Shown here: positions 4,937-37,046 of the stretch, one piece after another | Position numbering within the stretch: the stretch's first letter is position 1 | Layout of the letters: each line of letters starts with the position of its first letter | NCBI GenBank assembly: GCA_964630685.1 | Contig: CAZVVW010000010.1 | Coordinates: 1 to 37,758, forward strand | Length of the DNA: 37,758 nucleotides | Source: an uncultured Methanosarcinales archaeon | Lineage (GTDB): Archaea > Nanobdellota > Nanobdellia > Woesearchaeales > BS150m-G63 | Direction of reading: 5' to 3' | Notes under the pieces: model-generated | What the model saw: only the letters and a program-made list of their open reading frames with translations | Told to the model about the DNA's origin: nothing | Databases searched by the model: none | Program-made: the position numbers and the translations under genes

Positions 4937-6199
4937 ATGAAAAATTTTAAAGTGATTGGTATTCTGATGTTATTCTTAGTTTCTATTGTTGCAATTGGCA
5001 GTAGTGCTAGAGCAGATTTAAATGCCGATATTTTAAGTGTTGAAGTTGATGGAGTAGAATTAGATTCAACAAGTGAAATAAATAGATTAGATTTAGAAAG
5101 GGGAAATGATTTTGAGGTTAAAGTTATTATTGAAGCAAATGAAAATTATAATAACACTCAAATTGAAGTTTCTTTATATGGTGTTCATAACGAAAGAATT
5201 AATGATATCACAAGTACTTTTGATATGGTTGGTGGAATAAGTTATGTTAAGAGATTAAGTTTGGAACTTCCTGATAGGATGGATCAAGATAATTATCAAT
5301 TGAAAGTAAGAGTTGAAGGGAGAGAAGACTCATTTTCAGCAACATATAATCTTTCAATTAATACAGCAAGAAATGATGTAGTAATCAAAGATACTGTATT
5401 CAGTCCTGGTGAAGAAGTTAAACAAGGAAGAGCACTTTTAACAACTGTTAGAGTCAAAAATATGGGAGAAAAAGACGAAGAAGGAGTTAAAGTGACATTT
5501 AGTATTCCAAGTTTAGGACTTTCTGAATCAGATTACATTGATGAATTAGATGCAGGAGATTCAACCACATCTGAAGAATTATATGTAAAGATTCCTAACT
5601 GTGCAGAAGTCGGTAGTTATGCTTACGAAGTTGAAGTTAAGTATGATGATGGCGATGAAACAACCACAGAAACAGGTACTTTATATGTAGCTGAAGGAGA
5701 TATGTGTACAGCAGTTGAAGAAGCAGTTCCAACTACAATGGTTACTGTTGGACCAGCAACTCAAGATGTTAAACAAGGAGCATCAGCAATTTACCCTGTT
5801 ACATTAACTAACAGTGGAGCTGAAGCAAAAAGTTATACTGTAAGTGTTGATGGTGTAGCAGAGTGGGCAGTAGCAACTCTTGACCCTGCAGCATCTGTGT
5901 TATTACAGCCAGGCGAATCAAAAGCTGTTTATGTTTACATTGCAGCAAATGATGATGCATCAGCTGGAGAGCATATGTTTACTTTAACTATTAGTTCTGG
6001 AACAGAAACATTGAAAGATGTTGCTCTAAAAGCAAATGTTTTAGAAGATGGTAAAAGTGACTTCAAACGTGGTTTAGAAATAGGATTGATTGTGTTAGTT
6101 ATCTTGTTAGTTATCTTAGGATTAATCGTTGGCTTTAATAAATTAAGGGGCGATGATGAGTCAGAAGACACAGGAGACGACACAGAAACTTATTACTAA
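4937..6199 (+). CDS. Secreted, C-terminally anchored acidic Ig-like/CARDB-type surface (S-layer-like) protein
   Basis: Signal peptide, beta-rich acidic body with VKNMGEKDE and LTNSG CARDB/NEW3-like segments, C-terminal TM helix and acidic tail ending TYY. Confidence 0.7.
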   Translation: MKNFKVIGILMLFLVSIVAIGSSARADLNADILSVEVDGVELDSTSEINRLDLERGNDFEVKVIIEANENYNNTQIEVSLYGVHNERINDITSTFDMVGGISYVKRLSLELPDRMDQDNYQLKVRVEGREDSFSATYNLSINTARNDVVIKDTVFSPGEEVKQGRALLTTVRVKNMGEKDEEGVKVTFSIPSLGLSESDYIDELDAGDSTTSEELYVKIPNCAEVGSYAYEVEVKYDDGDETTTETGTLYVAEGDMCTAVEEAVPTTMVTVGPATQDVKQGASAIYPVTLTNSGAEAKSYTVSVDGVAEWAVATLDPAASVLLQPGESKAVYVYIAANDDASAGEHMFTLTISSGTETLKDVALKANVLEDGKSDFKRGLEIGLIVLVILLVILGLIVGFNKLRGDDESEDTGDDTETYY

Positions 6200-6254
6200 A
6201 TTTTTTATTTTTTCTTTTTTTACTTTTATTTTTTAAATATCTTTGGGGACTAGA

Positions 6255-7853
6255 ATGTTAAAATTAAATCTTGTTTCATTGTTTATTCTAATTATATTGG
6301 TATCTAGTGTATGTGCTGTTGATTTTAGCGTTGGTTCCGAGACAAGTGCTTTTGAATTATGTTCTTGTGGAGTTGTAAGTGATTCTTTTGTTATTTATAA
6401 TTTAGGTAGCGAGATTGCTAGTTTTATGGTTTATGCTGAAGGAAGTGGTGCTAGTTTTGTGAGTTTTACTGAAAATGTTTTTAATCTAGGTGTTGGAGAA
6501 TATAAAGAGTTAAATCCTTTTGTGGGAGTTCCTTGCGGGGTTATTGGAAATTATAATCTTAATTATATTATTGAAAGTGGTGGATTGAGAAAAGAATTGG
6601 GTAAGGAAGTAGCAGTTAAAGAGTGTGAAATTCTTAAAATGGAATTGGTGAGGGAAGGAAGTACTTGTAGTGGTGCTGAAGCGATTTATGAATTTGAATT
6701 GATTAATTTAAATGGATATAGTGAAAATTTTTCTTTGGAGAATGAATTGGTGTTGGATTATAATGAAAATCCTGTTTTATTGGGGCCAGGAGAGAGCAAA
6801 AGATTATTTGTTACTTTAAGTGTTCCTGATGAAGCTGGAGAATATGAATTTGATTTTGAAATAACAGGGGGAAATAGTGGTGGTAAATTTAGAAAAGAAT
6901 TTTCTTTAGATAGTGAAAATTGTTATTCTGTAGGTGTTAGTGGACCTGAAAAAGTGTGTGTTGGAGGAGTGCATAATATAGAAGTTGTTAATGATGGGAA
7001 AGCGTTTGAGGTTGTTAACATCTCCGGCGATATTTCTAATAAGTTGGTGAGTCTTGCTTCTGGACAAACTGAGGTGTTGATTTTTAATGCTGATGTTAAA
7101 GGGGTGTTTGAAACATATGTTAATCTTATAGATACTGAAATTAATGTTGATTATGTTTTGGAAGTAGTTTCCAATCAAGAGTGTTATTTATTGGAGTCTT
7201 CTCTTGAAGATATCTTAATTGGGCTTGAAGAAAGAGCGGTTCCTATTGATTTTAGGAATAATGGCTTAAAAAGAGGTACATACTCATTAAGCACAAATCT
7301 TGATTGGGTTGTTATTACTCCATCTGTTTTGGAATTAAATGTAGGGGAAGAAGAGAAAGTTCATTTATTTGTAAGTCCAAAAGAAGAAGGAATTTTTGAG
7401 TTGAATGTTAGTGCTCAATTTGAAAATAGTTCTTTGAGTTATGTTGAGTCTGTTGAATTAAAAGTTAGAGAGTCAAAGATTGAAAACTTTTTGGGGAAAT
7501 ATGGTGGCGCGATTGTTGTGATTTTGCTTTTGTTGATTTTGTTTGGGACTATATTTAATTCATTTGCTAAAGCTGTTGCGGGTGTTGGTACTAAAAAGAA
7601 AACTAAAAAGAGAATTAAGTTATGGATTAGTTTGCTGATTCTTTTAGTGGTTGTATTTGCGTTGGTGTTTTATTTTTATTGGGGATTTTTGTTTAATGGA
7701 TGTAAATGGCTTTTGGGGTTGGTGTTGAGTAAATGGCAATATATTATAAGTGCTGTTGCTGTGGTGCTTGCTGTTTTAATTCTGATTGTGTTGTTGGTTG
7801 TTTTGATTAGGAAGAAAAAGAACAAAAAGAAAATTAGTAAAAAATCTAAATAA
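6255..7853 (+). CDS. Membrane-anchored surface protein with Ig-like repeats and three C-terminal TM helices
   Basis: Signal peptide from ATG 6255 (the ORF track uses TTG 6243), repeated 'N.G...' and 'L..GE.K' Ig-like motifs, three hydrophobic C-terminal segments, Lys-rich tail. Confidence 0.65.
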   Translation: MLKLNLVSLFILIILVSSVCAVDFSVGSETSAFELCSCGVVSDSFVIYNLGSEIASFMVYAEGSGASFVSFTENVFNLGVGEYKELNPFVGVPCGVIGNYNLNYIIESGGLRKELGKEVAVKECEILKMELVREGSTCSGAEAIYEFELINLNGYSENFSLENELVLDYNENPVLLGPGESKRLFVTLSVPDEAGEYEFDFEITGGNSGGKFRKEFSLDSENCYSVGVSGPEKVCVGGVHNIEVVNDGKAFEVVNISGDISNKLVSLASGQTEVLIFNADVKGVFETYVNLIDTEINVDYVLEVVSNQECYLLESSLEDILIGLEERAVPIDFRNNGLKRGTYSLSTNLDWVVITPSVLELNVGEEEKVHLFVSPKEEGIFELNVSAQFENSSLSYVESVELKVRESKIENFLGKYGGAIVVILLLLILFGTIFNSFAKAVAGVGTKKKTKKRIKLWISLLILLVVVFALVFYFYWGFLFNGCKWLLGLVLSKWQYIISAVAVVLAVLILIVLLVVLIRKKKNKKKISKKSK

Positions 7854-7894
7854 ACACAACATTTTTAAATTCTTAGAGATATTTTTGTGGTTAA

Positions 7895-8047
7895 GGGGAC
7901 ATAGTATAACTTGGCTAGAATGGCTGGCTCCAGTTTTGGAGCGATGAGTCACAGAAAACCGTGGCAATGATGAAAGCTTTGGTCTGTTGAGGCGGGTTGC
8001 TTCAAGGAAGAGACCAGCAGATCTGGGTTCGAATCCCAGTGTCCCCA
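7895..8047 (+). tRNA. trnW: tRNA-Trp(CCA) with 79-nt intron at 37/38 (7934-8012)
   Basis: Acceptor GGGGACA/TGTCCCC, anticodon stem GCTGG/CCAGC with CT-CCA-G^A loop, T arm CTGGG-TTCGAAT-CCCAG; BHB-like junction with one mismatch in the central helix; CCA not encoded. Confidence 0.93.
7934..8012 (+). ncRNA. Intron-encoded box C/D guide RNA predicted to direct Cm34 and Cm39 of tRNA-Trp
   Basis: Box C ATGATGA 7967-7973; guide TTGGTCTG then TTGA (7987-7990) puts C39 at D+5; guide TTTGGAGCG then ATGA (7944-7947) puts C34 at D+5; stem GTCAC/GTGGC. Confidence 0.75.
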
Positions 8048-8156
8048 TTTTTTTATACTTTTTTACATAAATTCTTTTTATTTGAAGTAATTAATTAAGG
8101 AATGTAGAAAGGGATTAAATCAACTTTGTTGATTTATATCACTTCTCGTAGCCTAT

Positions 8157-8693: not shown

Positions 8694-11600
8694 ATGAAAA
8701 AAAAGGTAGCTTTAATTATTTTATTTCTCTTATGTGCATTAGTATTTTTTAAAGGTGCTAGTGCTGTTAATTGTTGGGATTATGACAATAATGAATCTGG
8801 TTGTATAGCGGAAGCTGGATGTAACTGGGATACTTGGGGTCAAAACTGTCATCCGGTTGGATGTTGGGACTTCCAAGAGTCTGGTGCATGTACTGGGAAT
8901 GCCACTGCCCTAAACATGTCCTGTACTTGGCAAACCCAAACTTCTTTTGGAGAAGGAGATGATGGATGGTGTGAAGATTCTACTGCCTGTTGGAATAATA
9001 TGGATAATATTTCTTGTGAAAATTCTGCTGGATGTAGTTGGGATGGTTCTTCTTATTGTGCTGAAATAAATTGTTGGAATTATGGGAATCAATTAGATTG
9101 TGAAAATCATTCTGTAAGCGGATGTAGTTGGGATGGATGGAGTTGTATGGAGTCTGGCGGAGCTAGTACTTGTTGGGATAAAAATTCTGAATCAACTTGT
9201 TCTGGTGCTGATTGTAATTGGAATTCAAATTCTTATTGTCAAGAAGTAGGTTGTTGGGATTTTGATAATAATGAATCTGGATGTAATGCTGCTTCTGGTT
9301 GTGCATGGCAGGAAGACCAATGGGGTAGTTGGTGTATGGAGTCTGGCGGATGCTGGGGATATACAAGTAGTACTTCTTGTGGAAATGCAGGATGTCATTG
9401 GGAATCTGAAGAATTAGAATGTTTCCCATTAGATTGTTTTATGTTTGCAGGAGAAAATGCTAGTGTGTGTGAAAATAATACTTTGGGGTTGAGTTGTAGT
9501 TGGGAAGATAAATGTCATCCAATGGGTCCTGGCGGAGAAAGTTGTTGGGATTATAGTGATGAATCTAGTTGTGAAAATGCTGGCTGTGGTTGGGGAGAAT
9601 GTTTCCAACAAGGATGTTGGGATAATCATGACCAAAATACGTGTGAAGCAAATGATTGTAATTGGGATGGTTGGAATTGTATGGAGCAAGGTTGTTGGGG
9701 TGCAAATACTCAATCAGATTGTAATGCTTTAGGTAGTGAATGTAGTTGGACTTCTGATTCTGGATGGTGTGAAGAAGGAGGTTGTTGGAATTATAATGAT
9801 AATGTTACTTGTTTGGGTGCTAGCAGTTGTGCATGGCAGGAAGACCCATGGGGTGGATGGTGCTATGAAGAAGGCTGTTATGAACAAAATAATGAAGGAG
9901 ATTGTAATACTACTTCAGGTTGTGAATGGGACAGTAGTGGAAACACTTGTTTTGAACAAGGTTGTTGGGATTATAATGATGGTTCTTCCTGTGGTTCTGG
10001 AGAGGGTTGTGAATGGGTAACTTCAGGTCAATGTTATGAAGAAGGTTCTTGGAGTTTTGATAGTAAAAGTAGTTGTGAAGATGGAGGTTATACTTGGGGG
10101 GGTTCTGGATGGTGTGAAGATGAAGGTTGCTGGAACTATGGAACTAAATTAAATTGTGATAATGCTAGTCAGTGTCAATGGAATGATGAATGGAATCATT
10201 GTGAAGAAGTGGGATGTGAAAGTTTCAATACAGAATCAACATGTGATCAATATAATGTCTCTCTTGGATGTTATTGGGATGGTTGGAATTGTATGAAAAC
10301 TGGATGTTGGAATTATTGGGAAAATTCTAGTGTTTGTGGAAGTCATTCTGGTGAAGGATGTTCTTGGACATCTCAAGGACAATGTTTAACAAAAGATTGT
10401 TGGAATTACCAAAATAATAATACTTGTTCAGCAGATAGTAATTGTAATTGGGATACTCGGTGTGAAGGAGATTATATGTATGAATGTTGGCAATATGATG
10501 ATAATTCAACTGGATGTTTAGCTCAAGGTGCTAATTGTAATTGGCAAGGTGGTTGTGAAGAAAAAGGATGTTGGAGTTATGAAACAGATAGTCAATGTTG
10601 TGGTAGTGCAGGATGTAGTTCAGGAAATGATTGTGCTTGGGAATCTGAAGGGCAATGTAAAGAAGTAGGTTGTTGGGATTATTATGTTAATACAACTTGT
10701 TTGAATGTTAGTGGATGTACATGGGATGAGAATGATAATTATTGTTATGAACAAGGTTGTGGTAGTTATACCAATGCTTCTGCTTGTACCCAACAAAATT
10801 ATCTAGGGTGTTTCTGGGATGAACAAGAGAATAATTGTTATGAACAAGGTTGTTGGGAATATACCATTGAAGCTCAGTGTGATTCAAATAATGCAAGTGC
10901 TTGTGCATGGAATGATAATGGAAATTACTGTTATGAAGAAGGCTGTTGGAGTTATGATGGTGTGAGTGATTGTAATGCTCAGAGTGGTTGTGAATGGGAA
11001 GATGAAGGATGGTGTTATGATTTAGGTTGTTGGGATTATAATGAGCAATCTACATGTATAAACAATTCAGTTTGTGCATGGGACACAACATGGAATAATT
11101 GTTATGAAAAAGGATGTTGGGATTTTAGTTCTGAATCTGATTGTAATTCTAGTTCAAAATGTTCATGGGATGGGCAAAATTGTTTTGAAAAAGGATGTTG
11201 GAATTATGGAGATAATATAAGTGAAACAGGTTGTGAATCTGATGATAATTGTTTTTGGGATGCTAATGGTGGATGGTGTAGTGAAGGTGGATGCTGGGAT
11301 TATGCATCTTCTGAAACATGTATTGGTGATGCTAGTGGTTATGGTAATTGTGCATGGGATTCTCATTGGAATAACTGTTATGAAGAAGGCTGTTGGGCTT
11401 ATGGAGATAATGATACTGCATGTGGAAATAATGCTAATTGTAATTGGAACTCTGGTGATGGAGGATGGTGTTTTGAAGAAGGTTGTTGGGAAATTATGGA
11501 TAGCACAAGTTGTTTAGCTGGTGATGGGTGTAATTGGGATAGCTTATTTAATTATTGTTATGAAGAAGGATGTTATAGTTTTGATGATAATTCAACTGCT

Positions 11601-14600
11601 TGTGATGGTGCTAGTGGATGTAGTTGGCATAATATGAGTCAAGATTCATGGGGCTGGTGTGAAGAAGTGAATTGTTGGAGTTTTTATGATAACGAATTTG
11701 GATGTACAAATGTTAGTGATAGTTTAGATTGTGTATGGGATAATCCTTATTGTGAAGAAGTTGCTTGTTGGGCATTTGATGGTGATGAATATAATTGTAC
11801 AAATGTTACGGGAGTTGCTAATGGTAATTATAATTTAAGTTGTAATTATGAAAATGGATGGTGTAATCCAGATGTTGGAGATTGTGCACAGTATAATAAT
11901 AATGAAAAAGGATGTATGGATACTTTCTATTGTTGGTATGATTGGTTAACAGGTAATTGCAATACACCAGGAGATTTTATTGAAGGGGAAATGGGCTTTG
12001 CTGAAGAGATGAAAGATTTTAATCCTGGATGTTGGTTATTTGATGGTCAAAAAGGTTCATGTAATAGTACAGACCTTTGTGTTTTCTGTGAAGAAGGCGA
12101 AGGACAGTTTGGTGTTGATAATCTTAGCAGTGTTTGTTATAATGAAGATGCAAACATGTGTGAAGATATGAATGTAACCCAAGGAATGAATAGACCATTA
12201 CAGTGTGAAAACATAACTGATAAAGATTTATGTAGTGGGATGGTTACTTTGAGTAATTGTTGTAATTGGAGGGGTGAAGAATGTACCACTGATTACACAG
12301 ATAAATCTTGTTATGATAATATGCAAGAACCTCCAGAAGGAGCAATGTTCTGTGAAGATTGGAAATCTTATACTAGTGAGAAATTATGTAACCAAATAAC
12401 TGGAAGTCCTTGGTTCATGCCTTGTAGTTGGGATGGAAATTATTGTACTTTTAAATTTGATGATGTTGTTGGAGAAGGAGGAGATATTTTTGATGTAAAA
12501 ACAGAGAAATTATGTGAACAAGCAAATGGGGATTGGAATTGTGAGAATTATTGTGATGATATGGGCACTCCAAGTAATTTGGCTGATGACGTTTTAAAGG
12601 GCGAGTGTTGGTGTGAATTAGGAACTGGCATAGGTAATTGTAAGAAATCTTGCTGGGCATGTGAATATCAAAATGATGGAAGTGATTGGAGTAGTTCAGA
12701 GCTTGCTCAAGAAGCATGTGAAGGTTCTAGTGCTGGTTGTGAATATGAATTAAGTGCTTCTGCACAAAATGGATTTGGATATTGTGATTTTAGTTCAACT
12801 ATGGAACAAACAGGTGGATGTGATAGTAGTTGTTCTGCTTGTAATGATGTTGTTGACAATGAACAAACTTCTGAACCTGAAACTCAGATTGCTTGTGTAG
12901 AAAGTGAAGCTAATTGTAAATGGGCTAAAGATTTATCAGATTCTAGTGAGGGGAAATGTATTAAAAAGAAAGACAAAACCTGTACTGAAAGCTGTTTTAA
13001 ATGTACTGAAGATGAATGTGCAAGTTATGGTTTAGGTAGTGGGGGAAGTTGTGAATGGGATTTAACAGATGAATATTGTGCACCAGCTAGCTTTGACGAA
13101 GAGTTATGTTTTAATGGTAGGGATGACGATAATGATAATAAAGTAGATTGTGATGATAGTGATTGTTTCTTTTCTCCAGATTGTGAAGAAGGTGAAATGA
13201 TGCAGGACTGTTGGCAATTTGATTACGATTCAGCTGTTTGTGATTCTAATTTAGATTCTAATGGTGTGAACTGCACATGGATAACAGATCCTTGGGGAAG
13301 TGGAGGATGGTGTGGACATCCATCTGAAATATGTTGGCAATTCGATGAAAGTGAATCTAATTGTAATAATCAAGATGGTGCATGTAAATTTACTTCTGGT
13401 GCAGGATTTTGTGATATAAATAAAACTAAAGCAGATTCTTGTAAAGGAAAAAGTCAAGGTGGATGCACTGGAGATTGTGAGTGGATTGAAGATATAAATA
13501 ATCCTCAAGGGGGATTTTGTGAATTTAAAATGTTTGCAATTTGCCATGATTCAGATATTACAAGTCAATCTACTTGTGAGAATCAGAATAATGTACAATA
13601 TTGTAGTTGGATGAATGATCCTTATGCAGATAATGGTGGATGGTGTGAACCTAAGTGTTTTAATTTAAATAATAATTCATGTGTTACAAATGCTAAGTGT
13701 GAGTGGAGTTCAGGATGGTGTGAACCAAATGTAACCATGAGTGCAGATTGTTATGAATTTGATAATACGGATAAATTTACTTGTGAAACTAGTCCATCTT
13801 GTATGTGGAATGCACCTAAATTTGGTGGAGAATGTGAGCCTGATGAAAGTGGATTATTCAATTGTTGGGATAGTTACTGGAAGGAACCTCATTGTAATGA
13901 TGATAAAAATTGTATTTGGATGCAAGATAAATTTGGGGGAGATCAAGGAGGTCATTGTGAAAATAAGGCATTTGCTTGTTGGATGAATGATTTTAATGAA
14001 TCAGCATGTAATGCAGCGAATGCTTCTGGGTGTGTTTATAATAATGGATTTTGTGACCACTTTTGTTTTACTTTGGATTCCGGAAGTTGTTCAAGTAATG
14101 CAAATTGTACTATTATGACTGGATGGTGTAATCCAAAAGGGGCTGCAATGATGTTTGAGACAATGGATGCTCCACCTGTAGATATTGGGATGGATGCTTG
14201 TCCCGAAGTTGGAAAGACAAACCTTACAGATATCTGTGGAATGGGTGTAAAAGATGACTTTGAGATGTTAGGTCTTGGATTAGGGATTGTTAGTATGAGT
14301 AAATCTGCAACCTGTAATGGGGAATATATTATAGACCATATGACTGGTGAATCTGAACAAGGAAGTGGAACAATACCTATGAAGGTTGAGTTTTATCTTG
14401 ATAGTAATGGGAAATCTACTGGCGGATGTAGCGCAAGTAATAATGTAGAAACAGGATTTGAATTTAAACTTGTGCTGGAATCAACTTCTAGTGATAAAGA
14501 GAGTGTTGAGAAATATAAATGTGTAAGTGGAAGTTGGGAAAACAGCAATATTAAGGCAGCTACAATGGCAAATGTGATGTGTGCAGAAGCTGGTGGACCT

Positions 14601-16283
14601 GTTGTGATGATAAATAAACAAACTTTATCAGAGACTGGTAAGTTTGATTTGAGTTATGATTTGAGGCTGTATGCACTAACATTGAATTTCAGTACAGGCG
14701 ATGCATTAGACAGTGTTTCTGGAATTTATACTCCTGGTGCTGTTGATTTTATGAAAGAGAATTGTATGGGCTTTGAAGATACTGATGGAGACGGACTTCC
14801 ACCAGATATGGATCCGGATTGTAAATTTATTAAACAATTTGGAGGAAACATGCTTGAAGATTGTTTCAATGGTGTAGATGATAATATGGATGGATTAGTT
14901 GATTGTGATGATTTTGGATGTAAGTTTATGCCTCAGTGTGGAGGAGAATTGTTTGATTTTACTGCTGATGTTGATGATACAACCATGGCTTCAATTACAA
15001 ATTATGAAATTGATGCATTTGTAGATGCTGCATTTTTGAGATATGATACAAATGAACCTGCAAATGGAACTTTATTGTTCTATGGTAAAGATAGTGCTTG
15101 TAGTGAAGTTAATACCACAATTTATGATATAGGGGTTACTAGTAGTAGTGTTCCTGAATATAAGATGTGGCACGATGGACCAATTGATTATCAGAGTTTA
15201 GGATATGATTTAGAAAATGGAACTGCTTATTACTTTAAGTTGAGAGTGTGTGATAAAGCAGGAAACCCATGTGCTATAAGTGCATGTCTTGACTTTACAA
15301 CTGAAGCAAGTATGACTGATTGTGGAGTGAAATGTGAACCTGTATTTGATGTTAATTATGATGCCCCTAGTGGAGATGCTAATTTAGAAGATACAGAGAT
15401 TCAGTGGAACTTTGGAAGCGGATATGAAGCTAAAGGGTGTGGTGGAGCAGCTATCAAAAAGCCATATAATGAAACAAGTAACATAAGTGTAAAGATAAGT
15501 AATGATGATGCAGATGATCCTTGGAGTTTTTCTTTTGGAGGAATGGATATTAAGGGTGCTGTAGATATTAATAAAACAAGCATAGCTGAAGATGAACTAT
15601 TTGCAGATTCTACTGCAGAAGGGATTAAGTATGTAGGAATGGAGCACGATAAATGGATGGATATTAAAGGCGAAATGGCTCCAGAATTTATTGAACTTTG
15701 TGTACCTGGAAATGTAGAAACTTTATACCATTGTGAGGATGAAAGTGCAGTAAGTGTTGCAGATTGTACTGATGTTAGTGATTATGTGATATCAGGACCT
15801 ACATATAATAGCATTTTGGATTGTACAATGTTTAAGGTTCCATCTGATCTTGGATTCTCTGTTTACTTTGGTGAAGCTGAAGAAGATGAAGGTGGAGATG
15901 CCGGTGGAGATGCCGGTGGAGCTGGTGGTGCTGGTGGTGCTGGTGGTGCTGGTGGTGCAGTTTCTTCAACTGAGGAAGAAACAACAGAAGATGAAGTTGA
16001 CGAAGCTGACGAAGCTAACGAAGCTGACGAAGCTGAGGAAGAAACAACAGAAGATGAAGCGGATGAAGTTGACGAAGAAACAACAGAAGATGAAGAGATG
16101 GCTGTTTGTGGAGACGACGTATGTGAAGGTGATGAGACAACTGACAACTGCCCAGAAGATTGTGCAAGTGATTGGGCTAGATTTGCAATAAAAGGTTCTG
16201 GAAACATGTGGTTAGGAATTGGATTTATAGCAATGATTACTTTAGTTGCAGTGTTTATTATATTAAGAAAAAAGAGAGAATAA
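8694..16283 (+). CDS. Giant (2529 aa) secreted Cys/Trp-rich repeat surface protein with C-terminal TM anchor
   Basis: Signal peptide; dozens of C-x-E-x-GC-W-x-Y...C...C-x-W repeats; two CFNGxDDxxDxxVDCDDxxC motifs; G/A and E/D linker; CGDDVCEGDETTDNCPEDC; TM helix followed by RKKRE. Confidence 0.85.
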   Translation: MKKKVALIILFLLCALVFFKGASAVNCWDYDNNESGCIAEAGCNWDTWGQNCHPVGCWDFQESGACTGNATALNMSCTWQTQTSFGEGDDGWCEDSTACWNNMDNISCENSAGCSWDGSSYCAEINCWNYGNQLDCENHSVSGCSWDGWSCMESGGASTCWDKNSESTCSGADCNWNSNSYCQEVGCWDFDNNESGCNAASGCAWQEDQWGSWCMESGGCWGYTSSTSCGNAGCHWESEELECFPLDCFMFAGENASVCENNTLGLSCSWEDKCHPMGPGGESCWDYSDESSCENAGCGWGECFQQGCWDNHDQNTCEANDCNWDGWNCMEQGCWGANTQSDCNALGSECSWTSDSGWCEEGGCWNYNDNVTCLGASSCAWQEDPWGGWCYEEGCYEQNNEGDCNTTSGCEWDSSGNTCFEQGCWDYNDGSSCGSGEGCEWVTSGQCYEEGSWSFDSKSSCEDGGYTWGGSGWCEDEGCWNYGTKLNCDNASQCQWNDEWNHCEEVGCESFNTESTCDQYNVSLGCYWDGWNCMKTGCWNYWENSSVCGSHSGEGCSWTSQGQCLTKDCWNYQNNNTCSADSNCNWDTRCEGDYMYECWQYDDNSTGCLAQGANCNWQGGCEEKGCWSYETDSQCCGSAGCSSGNDCAWESEGQCKEVGCWDYYVNTTCLNVSGCTWDENDNYCYEQGCGSYTNASACTQQNYLGCFWDEQENNCYEQGCWEYTIEAQCDSNNASACAWNDNGNYCYEEGCWSYDGVSDCNAQSGCEWEDEGWCYDLGCWDYNEQSTCINNSVCAWDTTWNNCYEKGCWDFSSESDCNSSSKCSWDGQNCFEKGCWNYGDNISETGCESDDNCFWDANGGWCSEGGCWDYASSETCIGDASGYGNCAWDSHWNNCYEEGCWAYGDNDTACGNNANCNWNSGDGGWCFEEGCWEIMDSTSCLAGDGCNWDSLFNYCYEEGCYSFDDNSTACDGASGCSWHNMSQDSWGWCEEVNCWSFYDNEFGCTNVSDSLDCVWDNPYCEEVACWAFDGDEYNCTNVTGVANGNYNLSCNYENGWCNPDVGDCAQYNNNEKGCMDTFYCWYDWLTGNCNTPGDFIEGEMGFAEEMKDFNPGCWLFDGQKGSCNSTDLCVFCEEGEGQFGVDNLSSVCYNEDANMCEDMNVTQGMNRPLQCENITDKDLCSGMVTLSNCCNWRGEECTTDYTDKSCYDNMQEPPEGAMFCEDWKSYTSEKLCNQITGSPWFMPCSWDGNYCTFKFDDVVGEGGDIFDVKTEKLCEQANGDWNCENYCDDMGTPSNLADDVLKGECWCELGTGIGNCKKSCWACEYQNDGSDWSSSELAQEACEGSSAGCEYELSASAQNGFGYCDFSSTMEQTGGCDSSCSACNDVVDNEQTSEPETQIACVESEANCKWAKDLSDSSEGKCIKKKDKTCTESCFKCTEDECASYGLGSGGSCEWDLTDEYCAPASFDEELCFNGRDDDNDNKVDCDDSDCFFSPDCEEGEMMQDCWQFDYDSAVCDSNLDSNGVNCTWITDPWGSGGWCGHPSEICWQFDESESNCNNQDGACKFTSGAGFCDINKTKADSCKGKSQGGCTGDCEWIEDINNPQGGFCEFKMFAICHDSDITSQSTCENQNNVQYCSWMNDPYADNGGWCEPKCFNLNNNSCVTNAKCEWSSGWCEPNVTMSADCYEFDNTDKFTCETSPSCMWNAPKFGGECEPDESGLFNCWDSYWKEPHCNDDKNCIWMQDKFGGDQGGHCENKAFACWMNDFNESACNAANASGCVYNNGFCDHFCFTLDSGSCSSNANCTIMTGWCNPKGAAMMFETMDAPPVDIGMDACPEVGKTNLTDICGMGVKDDFEMLGLGLGIVSMSKSATCNGEYIIDHMTGESEQGSGTIPMKVEFYLDSNGKSTGGCSASNNVETGFEFKLVLESTSSDKESVEKYKCVSGSWENSNIKAATMANVMCAEAGGPVVMINKQTLSETGKFDLSYDLRLYALTLNFSTGDALDSVSGIYTPGAVDFMKENCMGFEDTDGDGLPPDMDPDCKFIKQFGGNMLEDCFNGVDDNMDGLVDCDDFGCKFMPQCGGELFDFTADVDDTTMASITNYEIDAFVDAAFLRYDTNEPANGTLLFYGKDSACSEVNTTIYDIGVTSSSVPEYKMWHDGPIDYQSLGYDLENGTAYYFKLRVCDKAGNPCAISACLDFTTEASMTDCGVKCEPVFDVNYDAPSGDANLEDTEIQWNFGSGYEAKGCGGAAIKKPYNETSNISVKISNDDADDPWSFSFGGMDIKGAVDINKTSIAEDELFADSTAEGIKYVGMEHDKWMDIKGEMAPEFIELCVPGNVETLYHCEDESAVSVADCTDVSDYVISGPTYNSILDCTMFKVPSDLGFSVYFGEAEEDEGGDAGGDAGGAGGAGGAGGAGGAVSSTEEETTEDEVDEADEANEADEAEEETTEDEADEVDEETTEDEEMAVCGDDVCEGDETTDNCPEDCASDWARFAIKGSGNMWLGIGFIAMITLVAVFIILRKKRE
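15891..16096 (+). repeat. Coding micro-repeats forming the Gly/Ala and acidic linker of the giant protein
   Basis: GGTGGAGATGCC x2, GGTGGTGCT tandem copies, GACGAAGCT tandem copies, and GAAGAAACAACAGAAGATGAAG x3. Confidence 0.8.
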
Positions 16284-26770: not shown

Positions 26771-27448
26771 TTATTTGAGTTTACGAAAAAAGCCGAATAA
26801 AGCAAAGATTTCTCTTTTTGTTAAGAAGGATTTGTTTAGAACTTTTTTCCAAGCTATTTTTTGTGTTTGTTTTTTCTCTTTTGTTGTAAATGTAAATTTA
26901 TTGAGGAGTTGATCAATTCTTTTTAAAAGAACTTGCTTATCTGTTGCAGAAGCCAATTCAATTTGTGCTGTTTTTTTTGTTTTGAATATTTCATAAAAAA
27001 TTATTGAAGCAGCATGACTAATATTCATTGTTGGATAGATTTCTGAAGTTGGAATTCTTACAGTTATATCACATTTTTTTATTTCTGCGTTTGTTAACCC
27101 ATCACTTTCTCTTCCGAAAACAATTACAACATTATTTTTTATATTTTTTATATTTTTAGCTAATTGTTCTGGAGATAATGCAACTCTAGGCATGTTGTAA
27201 TCTGTTCCATGAATTGCAGTTGTGCCAATTATATAATCAAATTTTTTTAAATAGCTGAAACTTTTTGCTATTTTTGCTTCTTGAAGAAGTTCTTTTGCAT
27301 GTTTTGATCTTGCAATTGCTTCACTACTCAAATGATTGCATTGGGGGTCTATTAGGATCAATTTTGAAAGGCCAAAGTTTTTCATGGCTCTTGCTATTGC
27401 ACCAAGATTTCCAGAAGTTTCTGGTTGGATTAAAGCTATATGTATCAT
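26771..27448 (-). CDS. trmJ: SPOUT tRNA methyltransferase, TrmJ/LasT family
   Basis: PETSGNLGAIARAMKNFG, FGRESDGLTN, YPTMNISHA. Confidence 0.88.
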   Translation of the reverse strand: MIHIALIQPETSGNLGAIARAMKNFGLSKLILIDPQCNHLSSEAIARSKHAKELLQEAKIAKSFSYLKKFDYIIGTTAIHGTDYNMPRVALSPEQLAKNIKNIKNNVVIVFGRESDGLTNAEIKKCDITVRIPTSEIYPTMNISHAASIIFYEIFKTKKTAQIELASATDKQVLLKRIDQLLNKFTFTTKEKKQTQKIAWKKVLNKSFLTKREIFALFGFFRKLK

Positions 27449-31273: not shown

Positions 31274-31433
31274 GGGGCTGTGGTGTAGCTTGGCCTATCA
31301 TCTGTGGTTTGGGGCCATAGGACCCCGGTTCAAAACAGCCAGTTACGCTCAGTCGAAAGTTATTATTTACGCTCGAATACGCGTTATTGCGTTACATTTA
31401 TCGTAACTGTTGGTGAAAGTCCGGGCAGCCCCA
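31274..31433 (+). tRNA. trnP: tRNA-Pro(TGG) with 85-nt non-canonical intron at 59/60 (31335-31419)
   Basis: Acceptor GGGGCTG/CAGCCCC; anticodon arm TGTGG-TT-TGG-GG-CCATA; T arm CCCGG-TTCAAA^T-CCGGG interrupted; BHB with TTCA/TGAA central helix and CAGTTACG/CGTAACTG outer stem. Confidence 0.9.
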
Positions 31434-31465
31434 TTTTATATAATGAAATATTGAAGAAAATAAAA

Positions 31466-31855
31466 ATGGCAAAATTATCAACTAAAAGATTTGGAGCACG
31501 TTATGGTGCTAAATTAAGGAAAAAATTAGCTGTCATAGAAAAACAGCAGAAAAAAGCATATAAATGTCCTTATTGTAATTATGATAAGGTAAAAAGAGTT
31601 TTTGTAGGTGTTTGGCATTGTAAAAAATGTGATGCTAAATTTACAAGTAAAGCGTATTCTGTTGGAAAAGTAAATCTTAAGTCAACTGAAATTAGGGGCG
31701 AAAAAGAAGTTAAAGAACCTATAGAAAAAGAAGTGGAAGATGTTTCTACTGAAAAAACAATTAAAAAGACTAAGAAAGTGACTAAGAAAGTGACTAAGAA
31801 AGTGACTAAGAAAGTGGCTAAGAAAGTTTCTACTAAGAAAAAGGGGGATGATTAA
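31466..31855 (+). CDS. rpl37ae: 50S ribosomal protein L37Ae (eL43) with Lys-rich repetitive C-terminal extension
   Basis: RFGARYG, CPYC...GVWHCKKC; true start is ATG 31466 (the upstream part of the tracked ORF overlaps the tRNA). Confidence 0.93.
   Translation: MAKLSTKRFGARYGAKLRKKLAVIEKQQKKAYKCPYCNYDKVKRVFVGVWHCKKCDAKFTSKAYSVGKVNLKSTEIRGEKEVKEPIEKEVEDVSTEKTIKKTKKVTKKVTKKVTKKVAKKVSTKKKGDD
31768..31827 (+). repeat. 12-bp tandem repeat encoding (TKKV)n
   Basis: GACTAAGAAAGT x4 plus GGCTAAGAAAGT. Confidence 0.9.

Positions 31856-35945: not shown

Positions 35946-37046
<1,101 letters not shown>

Follow-up and report, generated by a model that had tools for sequence, protein, structure and literature searches.

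We analyzed a stretch of 37,758 nucleotides (hereafter, the window) from an uncultured archaeon labeled Methanosarcinales and placed by GTDB in the Woesearchaeales (BS150m-G63), namely positions 1 to 37,758 of contig CAZVVW010000010.1 (assembly GCA_964630685.1). A tRNA-Trp(CCA) gene interrupted by an intron was found at 7895–8047 on the plus strand (Rfam RF00005, 42.7 bits; gathering score, 29), and the intron carries the elements of a box C/D methylation guide in a permuted order. All features of this gene given below lie on the plus strand. Based on the Rfam match, the 5′ exon (tRNA positions 1–37) occupies 7895–7933, and the 3′ exon (positions 38–73), placed by Rfam together with sequence reading, occupies 8013–8047. 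The anticodon bases C34, C35 and A36 correspond to 7930–7932 and G37 to 7933, followed across the intron by A38 (8013) and positions 39–43 (8014–8018). The intron (7934–8012, 79 nt) is inserted at the canonical 37/38 site, and its limits were set by an exact fit to the hBHBh′ geometry of archaeal bulge–helix–bulge (BHB) introns. ARAGORN missed this gene, and its sole report in the window was a tRNA-Pro (31274–31348).

Box C/D Elements of the Intron

From 5′ to 3′, the intron includes a guide for C34 (guide34), AUGA, a 5-bp hairpin, AUGAUGA, a guide for C39 (guide39), UUGA and AGGAAGA, the last of which ends one base before the 3′ splice site. Guide34 (7935–7942) forms eight contiguous pairs with positions 31–38 of the spliced tRNA, with G7939 facing C34, and six pairs with positions 31–36 in cis, in the unspliced transcript. 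It is followed by a variant of box D, AUGA with A for C (7944–7947), which abuts the closing stem and obeys for C34 the N+5 rule, by which the modified base faces the fifth base upstream of D or D′. The hairpin closing the C/D kink-turn (K-turn) occupies 7948–7965, with an 8-nt loop and a stem formed by 7948–7952 and 7961–7965. Box C (7967–7973) is a perfect AUGAUGA consensus. In a standard K-turn, a 3-nt bulge is followed by a G-A step; the arrangement of D, stem and C over 7944–7973 matches it, base 7966, A7967 and U7968 forming the bulge ahead of the G-A step of box C. Boxes C and D are placed for a K-turn beside a helix, as in archaeal box C/D small RNAs (sRNAs).

The 13-nt spacer that separates box C from the D′-like box (7974–7986) includes guide39 (7979–7986), which forms eight pairs with positions 35–42 of the spliced tRNA, with G7982 facing C39, or alternatively seven pairs with 8011–8017 of the unspliced 3′ junction. 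The D′-like UUGA (7987–7990) stands at N+5 for C39, and the rule is followed by both guides; the same UUGA is the 5′ end of a 7-bp hairpin (7987–7993 with 7999–8005). The C′-like AGGAAGA (8005–8011), with a G-A step at 8007–8008, overlaps the 3′ strand of the BHB central helix (8007–8010). In its site in tRNA-Trp(CCA) and its complements to positions 34 and 39, the intron agrees with the known tRNA-Trp intron guides. However, their linear order of C, guide, D′, C′, guide and D is absent and would be restored only by a junction of 8012 with 7934. As in the sRNA24 type of Nanoarchaeum equitans, the gene has box D upstream of box C.

A sequence-only reading of this DNA had described the intron as a circular permutation of the euryarchaeal guide, with an internal closing stem and a C′ box that reaches guide34 only across the ligation junction. 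Every element that it listed was located again, at the coordinates that it had given, by reading the sequence. The intron keeps the canonical cyclic order and is opened elsewhere, the closing stem is indeed the internal 5-bp hairpin, and the C′-like box is separated from AUGA by 11 nt (8012 and 7934–7943) that are contiguous only across the junction. The existence of a permuted box C/D element in the intron was confirmed in this way and, judging from related sequences, extends to other lineages.

The two guides are rare by chance. With a guide of at least 8 bp and NTGA at N+5 as the criterion, 200,000 dinucleotide-preserving shuffles of the intron gave a C34 guide in 734 cases, a C39 guide in 192 and both in 4. 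At a permissive threshold, the Rfam C/D families gave only sub-threshold C/D-box matches of at most 16.1 bits, starting at 7962–7963.

Comparison with Other Archaeal tRNA-Trp Introns

By scanning genomes, we obtained at least 120 tRNA-Trp-like loci that contain a central TGATGA. A perfect TGATGA and a GGTTCRAATCC T-loop were required, so the proportions below describe a biased sample only. We left out of the counts 24 loci without a tRNA-Trp fit (23 with bacterial labels and the truncated L118), as well as L035 and L051, which have bacterial labels and chance fits. The comparison set comprises 94 archaeal tRNA-Trp introns among the matches listed, and all counts of introns refer to it.

The canonical order, C, guide39, D′, C′, guide34 and D, against which the permutation had been proposed, was found in 43 of the 94 introns: 22/26 from Thermoplasmatota, 11/11 Halobacteriales-like, 9/9 from Archaeoglobi or unnamed lineages and 1/5 Nitrososphaerota-like. 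One or both guides were not found by the criteria used in 50/94. Of the 26 Thermoplasmatota introns, 19 use AUGA as the D box at N+5 of guide34; it is an ordinary box D, and its assignment as such by the sequence-only reading is sound.

The full order of the window was present, among the matches listed, only in L068, a locus of a Woesearchaeota metagenome-assembled genome. Its intron includes AUGA, a hairpin, AUGAUGA, guide39, UUGA at N+5 for C39, and a 3′ AUGAAGA. The 5′ exons of the two genes are identical at 36 of 39 bases, and the exons overall are about 92% identical. The C–D′ spacing is 13 nt in the window and 14 nt in L068, and the C′–D spacing, counted across the junction, is 11 nt in both; about 12 nt is characteristic of both spacings in archaeal box C/D sRNAs, and canonical introns such as L020 have 12 and 12 nt. 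The pairwise alignment shows conserved boxes and guides but a closing stem of different sequence, in which all five pairs are kept, two of them by compensatory changes on both sides, and one pair shows a one-sided change. Thus, the alignment for box order and covariation that the sequence-only reading had put forward as a check came out in favor of the layout that it had described. The tRNA-Trp of the window also has an A-A mismatch in the D stem (GUAU with GAAU) in common with L068.

Three more introns start with a 7–8 bp guide34, a D box at N+5, a hairpin and box C, namely L072 (Altiarchaeales), L013 (labeled only as an archaeon) and L077 (labeled Methanosarcinales). This unit is the sole part common to all five guide34-first introns among the matches listed. 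In L072, box D is the consensus CUGA at the place equivalent to the AUGA of the window. The guide39 complement is kept there, and its base facing position 41 changes together with the tRNA relative to the window, though CCAA stands where D′ should be. The D boxes of L072, L013 and L077 are at different positions (intron bases 13, 17 and 23), and a C′-like box one base short of the 3′ splice site is absent from all three; in L077 there is just a degenerate 7-mer, xxGAxG, two bases before the intron ends. We also considered another labeling of the window, in which 7941–7947 is a degenerate box C and UUGA is box D. It was rejected because UUGA would be 10 bases off the helix that it should abut and guide34 would lose its box, and the CUGA of L072 at the equivalent place is not C-like.

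All 12 Micrarchaeota-type introns listed (e.g., L030, L061 and L109) share with the window, near the 5′ end, NUGA, a hairpin, one base and RUGAUGA, here followed by a 6–8 bp complement to the anticodon loop. NNGA stands at N+5 of this single guide in 4/12. A 3′-terminal xxGAAGx box, also shared with the window, ends one base before the splice site in 11/12, and the distance from D′ to this box is short (3–7 nt). In contrast to the window, which has both guides, the C34 guide of these introns follows box C instead of preceding D, and guide39 is absent.

Other arrangements were observed in the same set. In the seven Hadesarchaea introns listed (L037, L038, L050, L089, L090, L108 and L120), guide39, CUGA, a short loop, GAUGAUGA and guide34 follow one another; a 5′ box C is lacking, as is NUGA at N+5 of guide34, and a single central K-loop lies between both guides. 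The Methanobacteriales introns (e.g., L002, L021 and L080) keep guide34 with CUGA in 20/20 of those listed but have the position-39 complement in 0/20, and their 5′ box reads UUUGAAGA; their first guide may have another target or none. In addition, a 695-nt contig labeled Neisseriaceae bacterium (L012) includes a tRNA-Trp gene with a Micrarchaeota-type intron and is probably mis-binned.

Predicted Folding of the Pre-tRNA

The pre-tRNA fits the hBHBh′ fold of archaeal BHB introns exactly. The anticodon stem is followed by a 3-nt bulge (8011–8013), a 4-bp central helix (7928–7931 with 8007–8010) in which C34 is unpaired opposite A8008, a second 3-nt bulge (7932–7934) and helix h′. BHB cleavage falls after the second bulge base, and the splice sites are 7933/7934 and 8012/8013. 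Helix h′ consists of 11 pairs between 7935–7945 and 7996–8006, and 90.9% of its cells are paired in the window and L068 combined. Its 3′ strand (7996–8006) resembles the anticodon loop, with U for C34, and as an internal decoy pairs with guide34 and part of box D. Bases 8005–8006 are outside the central helix and are paired only at the end of h′, where L068 tolerates a mismatch. An intron-terminal C/D stem doubling as h′ is absent: h′ is made of guide34 and the decoy, and the C/D stem is the internal hairpin.

According to the sequence-only reading, guide34 is locked in the outer BHB helix and is switched on by splicing and circularization. Guide34 is paired in the BHB fold, as claimed, but the helix is the intron-side h′ and not the outer one. 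Since both strands of h′ are intronic, excision and circularization alone leave guide34 paired, and the helix of guide34 with the decoy persists in the circle; this part of the claim is not supported. The same reading attributed the C34-A mismatch to the overlap of the C′ box with the central helix. The overlap was found, but as the cause of the mismatch the C′ box was rejected, because the mismatch occurs in 49 of the 94 introns listed, mostly of canonical order. The 3′ strand of the central helix is GAAG in 46/94, and the 8-mer that ends the intron of the window also closes one other listed intron, the canonical-order L054 from Thermoplasmata. Because the GAAG strand is generic among the listed introns, the C′-like AGGAAGA is fully explained by splicing constraints. 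More broadly, C35 is mismatched in 24/94 central helices and only 17/94 are fully paired; we know of no explanation for this widespread anticodon mismatch in the BHB helix of tRNA-Trp.

AGGAAGA is therefore a putative C′ box, which in the window itself has no independent support. UUGA and AGGAAGA could form tandem G-A pairs with 16 bases between them, although the BHB helix accounts for AGGAAGA and UUGA is paired in the fold described next. The C′ assignment would draw on three points only: AGGAAGA offers the sole G-A steps for UUGA, the 11-nt junction spacing is shared with L068, and the corresponding distance is short in Micrarchaeota.

The order 5′ exon, guide34, guide39 and 3′ exon allows each guide to pair with the neighboring exon without crossing, while the canonical order would make the cis pairings cross each other. 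In this cis conformer guide34 folds back onto positions 31–36, leaving a loop of 4 nt (GUUU for the window, GCAA for L068 and UGUU for L077), and guide39 can pair with 8011–8016/8017, since the intron ends in two bases that repeat A36 and G37. The cis conformer is the unconstrained minimum free energy (MFE) fold of the L068 pre-tRNA (−72.4 kcal/mol, compared with −59.4 kcal/mol for the BHB fold). For the window pre-tRNA the values are −56.4 (cis), −51.4 (strict BHB fold) and −58.9 kcal/mol (MFE), so that the cis conformer is predicted to be 2.5 kcal/mol less stable than the MFE but 5 kcal/mol more stable than the strict BHB fold, and the closing stem forms in it unforced. RNAalifold gave the same conformer as the consensus for the window and L068, with guide39 paired to the 3′ junction. 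Thus, “locked” was too strong a word for guide34. C34 is paired to its guide base in the MFE of four of the five guide34-first pre-tRNAs.

The predicted duplex energy of guide34 is −12.9 kcal/mol with the anticodon arm and −7.5 kcal/mol with the decoy. The decoy strand pairs with guide34 in the BHB fold and with 7987–7993 in the cis fold, and it looks like a toggle between them, on the thin basis of two closely related sequences. In the MFE of the naked intron, part of the closing-hairpin region (7948–7960) pairs with 7979–7987, i.e., with guide39. This may be a second internal decoy or a coincidence.

Proposed Guide Mechanism and Alternatives

Based on the above results, we suggest that the intron is a genuine permuted box C/D guide for C34, and probably C39, of its own tRNA, that it would work independently of circularization and that it possibly acts first in cis; to this reading as a whole we give an even chance. 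The K-turn is closed by an internal hairpin and not by the intron ends, so guide34, D, stem and C are complete and contiguous in the pre-tRNA, the linear intron and the circle. The link from the C′-like box to guide34 is the only connection that needs ligation. This continuity, together with the retention of h′ in the circle, favors a guide that does not depend on circularization.

The following pathway may be proposed. The pre-tRNA would take the unknotted conformer, with each guide on the adjacent exon. Then, L7Ae, Nop5 and fibrillarin, assembled on the K-turn, would methylate C34 and C39 by the N+5 rule. Guide34 would subsequently be passed to the internal decoy as the RNA refolds to the splicing-competent hBHBh′. 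After that, the splicing endonuclease and RtcB would free and circularize the intron, and the circle, now in the canonical order, may guide in trans. In such a pathway, circularization would be a bonus and not a requirement. Fibrillarin, Nop5 and L7Ae are nearly universal markers of archaea, being among the 38 single-copy genes by which the completeness of archaeal genomes is scored (PMC9258230), which is in line with this proposal.

Several observations weigh against it. Genes for fibrillarin, Nop5, L7Ae, RtcB and EndA were all absent from the 37.8-kb window. A loosely defined K-turn-hairpin motif of NNGA, stem, 3 nt and GA is frequent in shuffled sequences (12,879/34,000 when the stem has 3 bp or more, and 1,699/20,000 window shuffles when it has 5 bp or more), and it was discarded as statistical backing for the K-turn. 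The closing stem is absent from the MFE of the naked intron, whether linear or circular; to impose it takes +4.6 kcal/mol for the window and 6.3 kcal/mol for L068. A D′/C′ pair would be a K-loop with a non-standard 16-nt loop; UUGA is Watson–Crick paired in the predicted cis conformer, and its role as a D′ box is consequently only putative. Pairing of guide and target in cis also appears in the MFE of 22/64 canonical-order pre-tRNAs from four lineages, so the permuted form is not singled out by it. For a 4-nt loop between target and guide, we know of no precedent in structures of C/D ribonucleoproteins (RNPs). Finally, the full two-guide layout was found in only one other sequence among the matches listed, L068, and in view of the identity of its tRNA exons the spacings common to both may reflect inheritance and not selection.

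In a stricter, splicing-coupled explanation, the C′ box would be supplied by the 3′ strand of the BHB, and RtcB ligation alone would join it to guide34. The C34 guide would then be active only in the ligated circle, as a two-K-turn RNP acting in trans on the spliced tRNA-Trp. The cyclic order identical to the canonical one speaks for it, as do the 11-nt junction spacing repeated in L068, whose AUGAAGA is nearer to the consensus, and the pairing of guide34 with eight bases of the spliced tRNA, including A38, compared with six in cis. Moreover, the C′-like box and guide34 are both paired in the BHB fold, so a full RNP could not assemble on the splicing-competent pre-tRNA. Efficient methylation, reportedly according to Tran et al. 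in 2003 and 2005, needs both K-turn motifs at a fixed spacing. As for precedents, the permuted N. equitans sRNA24 is described as circular (PMC3491384) and the tRNA-Trp introns of Haloferax volcanii and Sulfolobus solfataricus as stable circles (PMC3326292, PMC7714728). However, the C′-like motif is set by the central helix and is present in canonical introns, where a C′ role is impossible, as the frequent GAAG strand and the L054 8-mer illustrate. L072, L013 and L077 keep guide34, D, hairpin and C without such a box and with D at varying positions, and the guide34–decoy helix is still present in the circle. In structural studies, RNPs have reportedly been formed from C/D RNAs in two pieces or as half-mers, so a nick beside the guide need not abolish assembly. 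On balance, we consider an obligatory circularization switch doubtful.

Less probable still is a half-functional relic, in which only guide34, D and C would be active as a single-K-turn half-mer, possibly paired through a Nop5 dimer, and guide39, UUGA and AGGAAGA would merely be structural, as parts of splicing and refolding helices. Such a relic would agree with the single unit common to the five guide34-first introns, with CCAA in place of D′ in L072, with UUGA being part of the conserved 7-bp hairpin with the decoy strand and with the presence of NNGA at N+5 in just 4/12 Micrarchaeota introns. But UUGA is exactly at N+5 for C39 both in the window and in L068, a C39 guide with its box arises in only 192 of the 200,000 shuffles, and guide39 co-varies with the tRNA in L072; we therefore regard the relic as unlikely. 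That the intron is no methylation guide at all, its complementarities and boxes being by-products of folding and splicing helices or chance, seems to us highly improbable. The BHB geometry would indeed explain the 3′ GAAGAG and the decoy helix, and the loose K-turn-hairpin motif is common in shuffles. A perfect AUGAUGA, however, is not required for splicing, nor are complements of the anticodon arm at N+5 of NUGA, and both guides occurred together in only 4/200,000 shuffles. In addition, the same parts in canonical order constitute the tRNA-Trp guide of H. volcanii, which is experimentally established according to reviews (PMC4090602, PMC11408192).

Flanking and Neighboring Genes

A run of seven T (8048–8054) follows the discriminator of tRNA-Trp and may serve as its terminator. 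An A/T-rich, TATA-like element was read from the sequence at 7862–7871 on the plus strand, about 27 nt upstream of the start of tRNA-Trp, and from general knowledge of archaeal promoters it is a putative promoter. The 536-aa open reading frame (ORF) at 6243–7853 (+), which ends 41 nt before tRNA-Trp, had no Pfam or NCBIfam match, nor did a 2529-aa ORF at 8694–16283 (+). The neighbor of the former, ORF 4937–6199, matches the PACE-CTERM putative S-layer family.

Elsewhere in the window, archaeal genes for aRF1, aIF5A, an AglB/STT3-type oligosaccharyltransferase and a geranylgeranyl reductase were found. Together with the identity of the tRNA exons to those of L068, this gene content makes a DPANN archaeon similar to Woesearchaeota or Pacearchaeota the most likely source. 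Among these otherwise archaeal genes there is a bacterial-type queuine tRNA-guanine transglycosylase, Tgt (35946–37040 (−); TIGR00430, 432 bits, above the cut-off). The window also encodes a TrmJ-family 2′-O-methyltransferase (26771–27448 (−)), a family of enzymes acting on position 32, so that protein-only ribose methylation of the anticodon loop is encoded nearby as well. ORF 31304–31855, with a GTG start, overlaps tRNA-Pro (the two cover 31274–31855); its L37ae match spans residues 59–121 only, and the true start is probably downstream. No other C/D sRNA genes were found in the window, and two half-pattern matches fall inside long ORFs.

Relation to Known Systems and Significance

The intron of tRNA-Trp is the textbook case of a tRNA intron with its own function, and its circle is unusually stable. 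The canonical euryarchaeal guide, as reported for H. volcanii and Pyrococcus, has the same host gene, 37/38 site, targets 34 and 39, N+5 relations and cyclic order, and a 3′ BHB strand of the GAAGAG type is also common to both. The differences concern where the intron ends and what this entails. In the window, the ends fall between the C′-like box and guide34, whereas in the canonical guide they fall between D and C. Helix h′ is formed by guide34 and the decoy in the former and by the C/D terminal stem in the latter. The K-turn of the window is hairpin-capped, with AUGA as D and UUGA as D′, and its guides stand beside their own exons, with unknotted cis pairing, unlike the crossing pairings of the canonical form. 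Introns of tRNA-Trp are described as stable circles (Danan 2012, PMC3326292), and the H. volcanii intron was detected by circRNA-seq (Schwarz 2020, PMC7714728).

A close counterpart in DPANN archaea is the permuted C/D sRNA24 of N. equitans, together with the D-before-C sRNA26. According to Randau 2012 (PMC3491384), sRNA24 is circular, D lies upstream of C, and the correct, conserved box order appears only in the circle. As described there, the N. equitans sRNAs are free-standing genes without a terminal BHB, whose ligation route is unknown, in contrast to the guide of the window, which lies inside a BHB intron and targets its host tRNA; in such an intron, the tRNA splicing enzymes would make the circle. 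DPANN splicing endonucleases are themselves the subject of a published study (PMC5829648). The permuted signal recognition particle RNA of Thermoproteus is restored by BHB cleavage and circularization (Plagens 2015, PMC4731332, cited in Breuer 2021, PMC7994747). It belongs to another RNA class, and circularization is reported as required for its function, while the core unit of the window is intact without it.

In full-text literature searches, with most subscription journals outside their coverage, we found no publication that describes a box C/D guide of permuted order in the intron of tRNA-Trp. Within the scope of these searches the permuted order is new; the tRNA-Trp intron box C/D guide as a kind is already known. 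Standard tRNA and sRNA finders miss genes of such a type: given that ARAGORN reported no tRNA here and the Rfam C/D families remained below threshold, the modification guides of small-genome archaea are probably under-annotated.

The splice junction cuts through the guide unit, which makes it directly testable whether the circular form matters. As to the origin of the permutation, the 3′ strand of the splicing helix is already C-box-like, and the rotated order, which puts the guides next to their own exons, would have removed the crossed pairing of the canonical order in cis. If the strict splicing-coupled explanation were true after all, methylation of the wobble base of tRNA-Trp would be strictly coupled to, and follow, splicing, and intron circularization, usually taken as a by-product, would be functionally obligatory in Woesearchaeota-like archaea. 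Together with the Micrarchaeota layout, this would mean that the functional tRNA intron known for the longest time has been rewired throughout DPANN.

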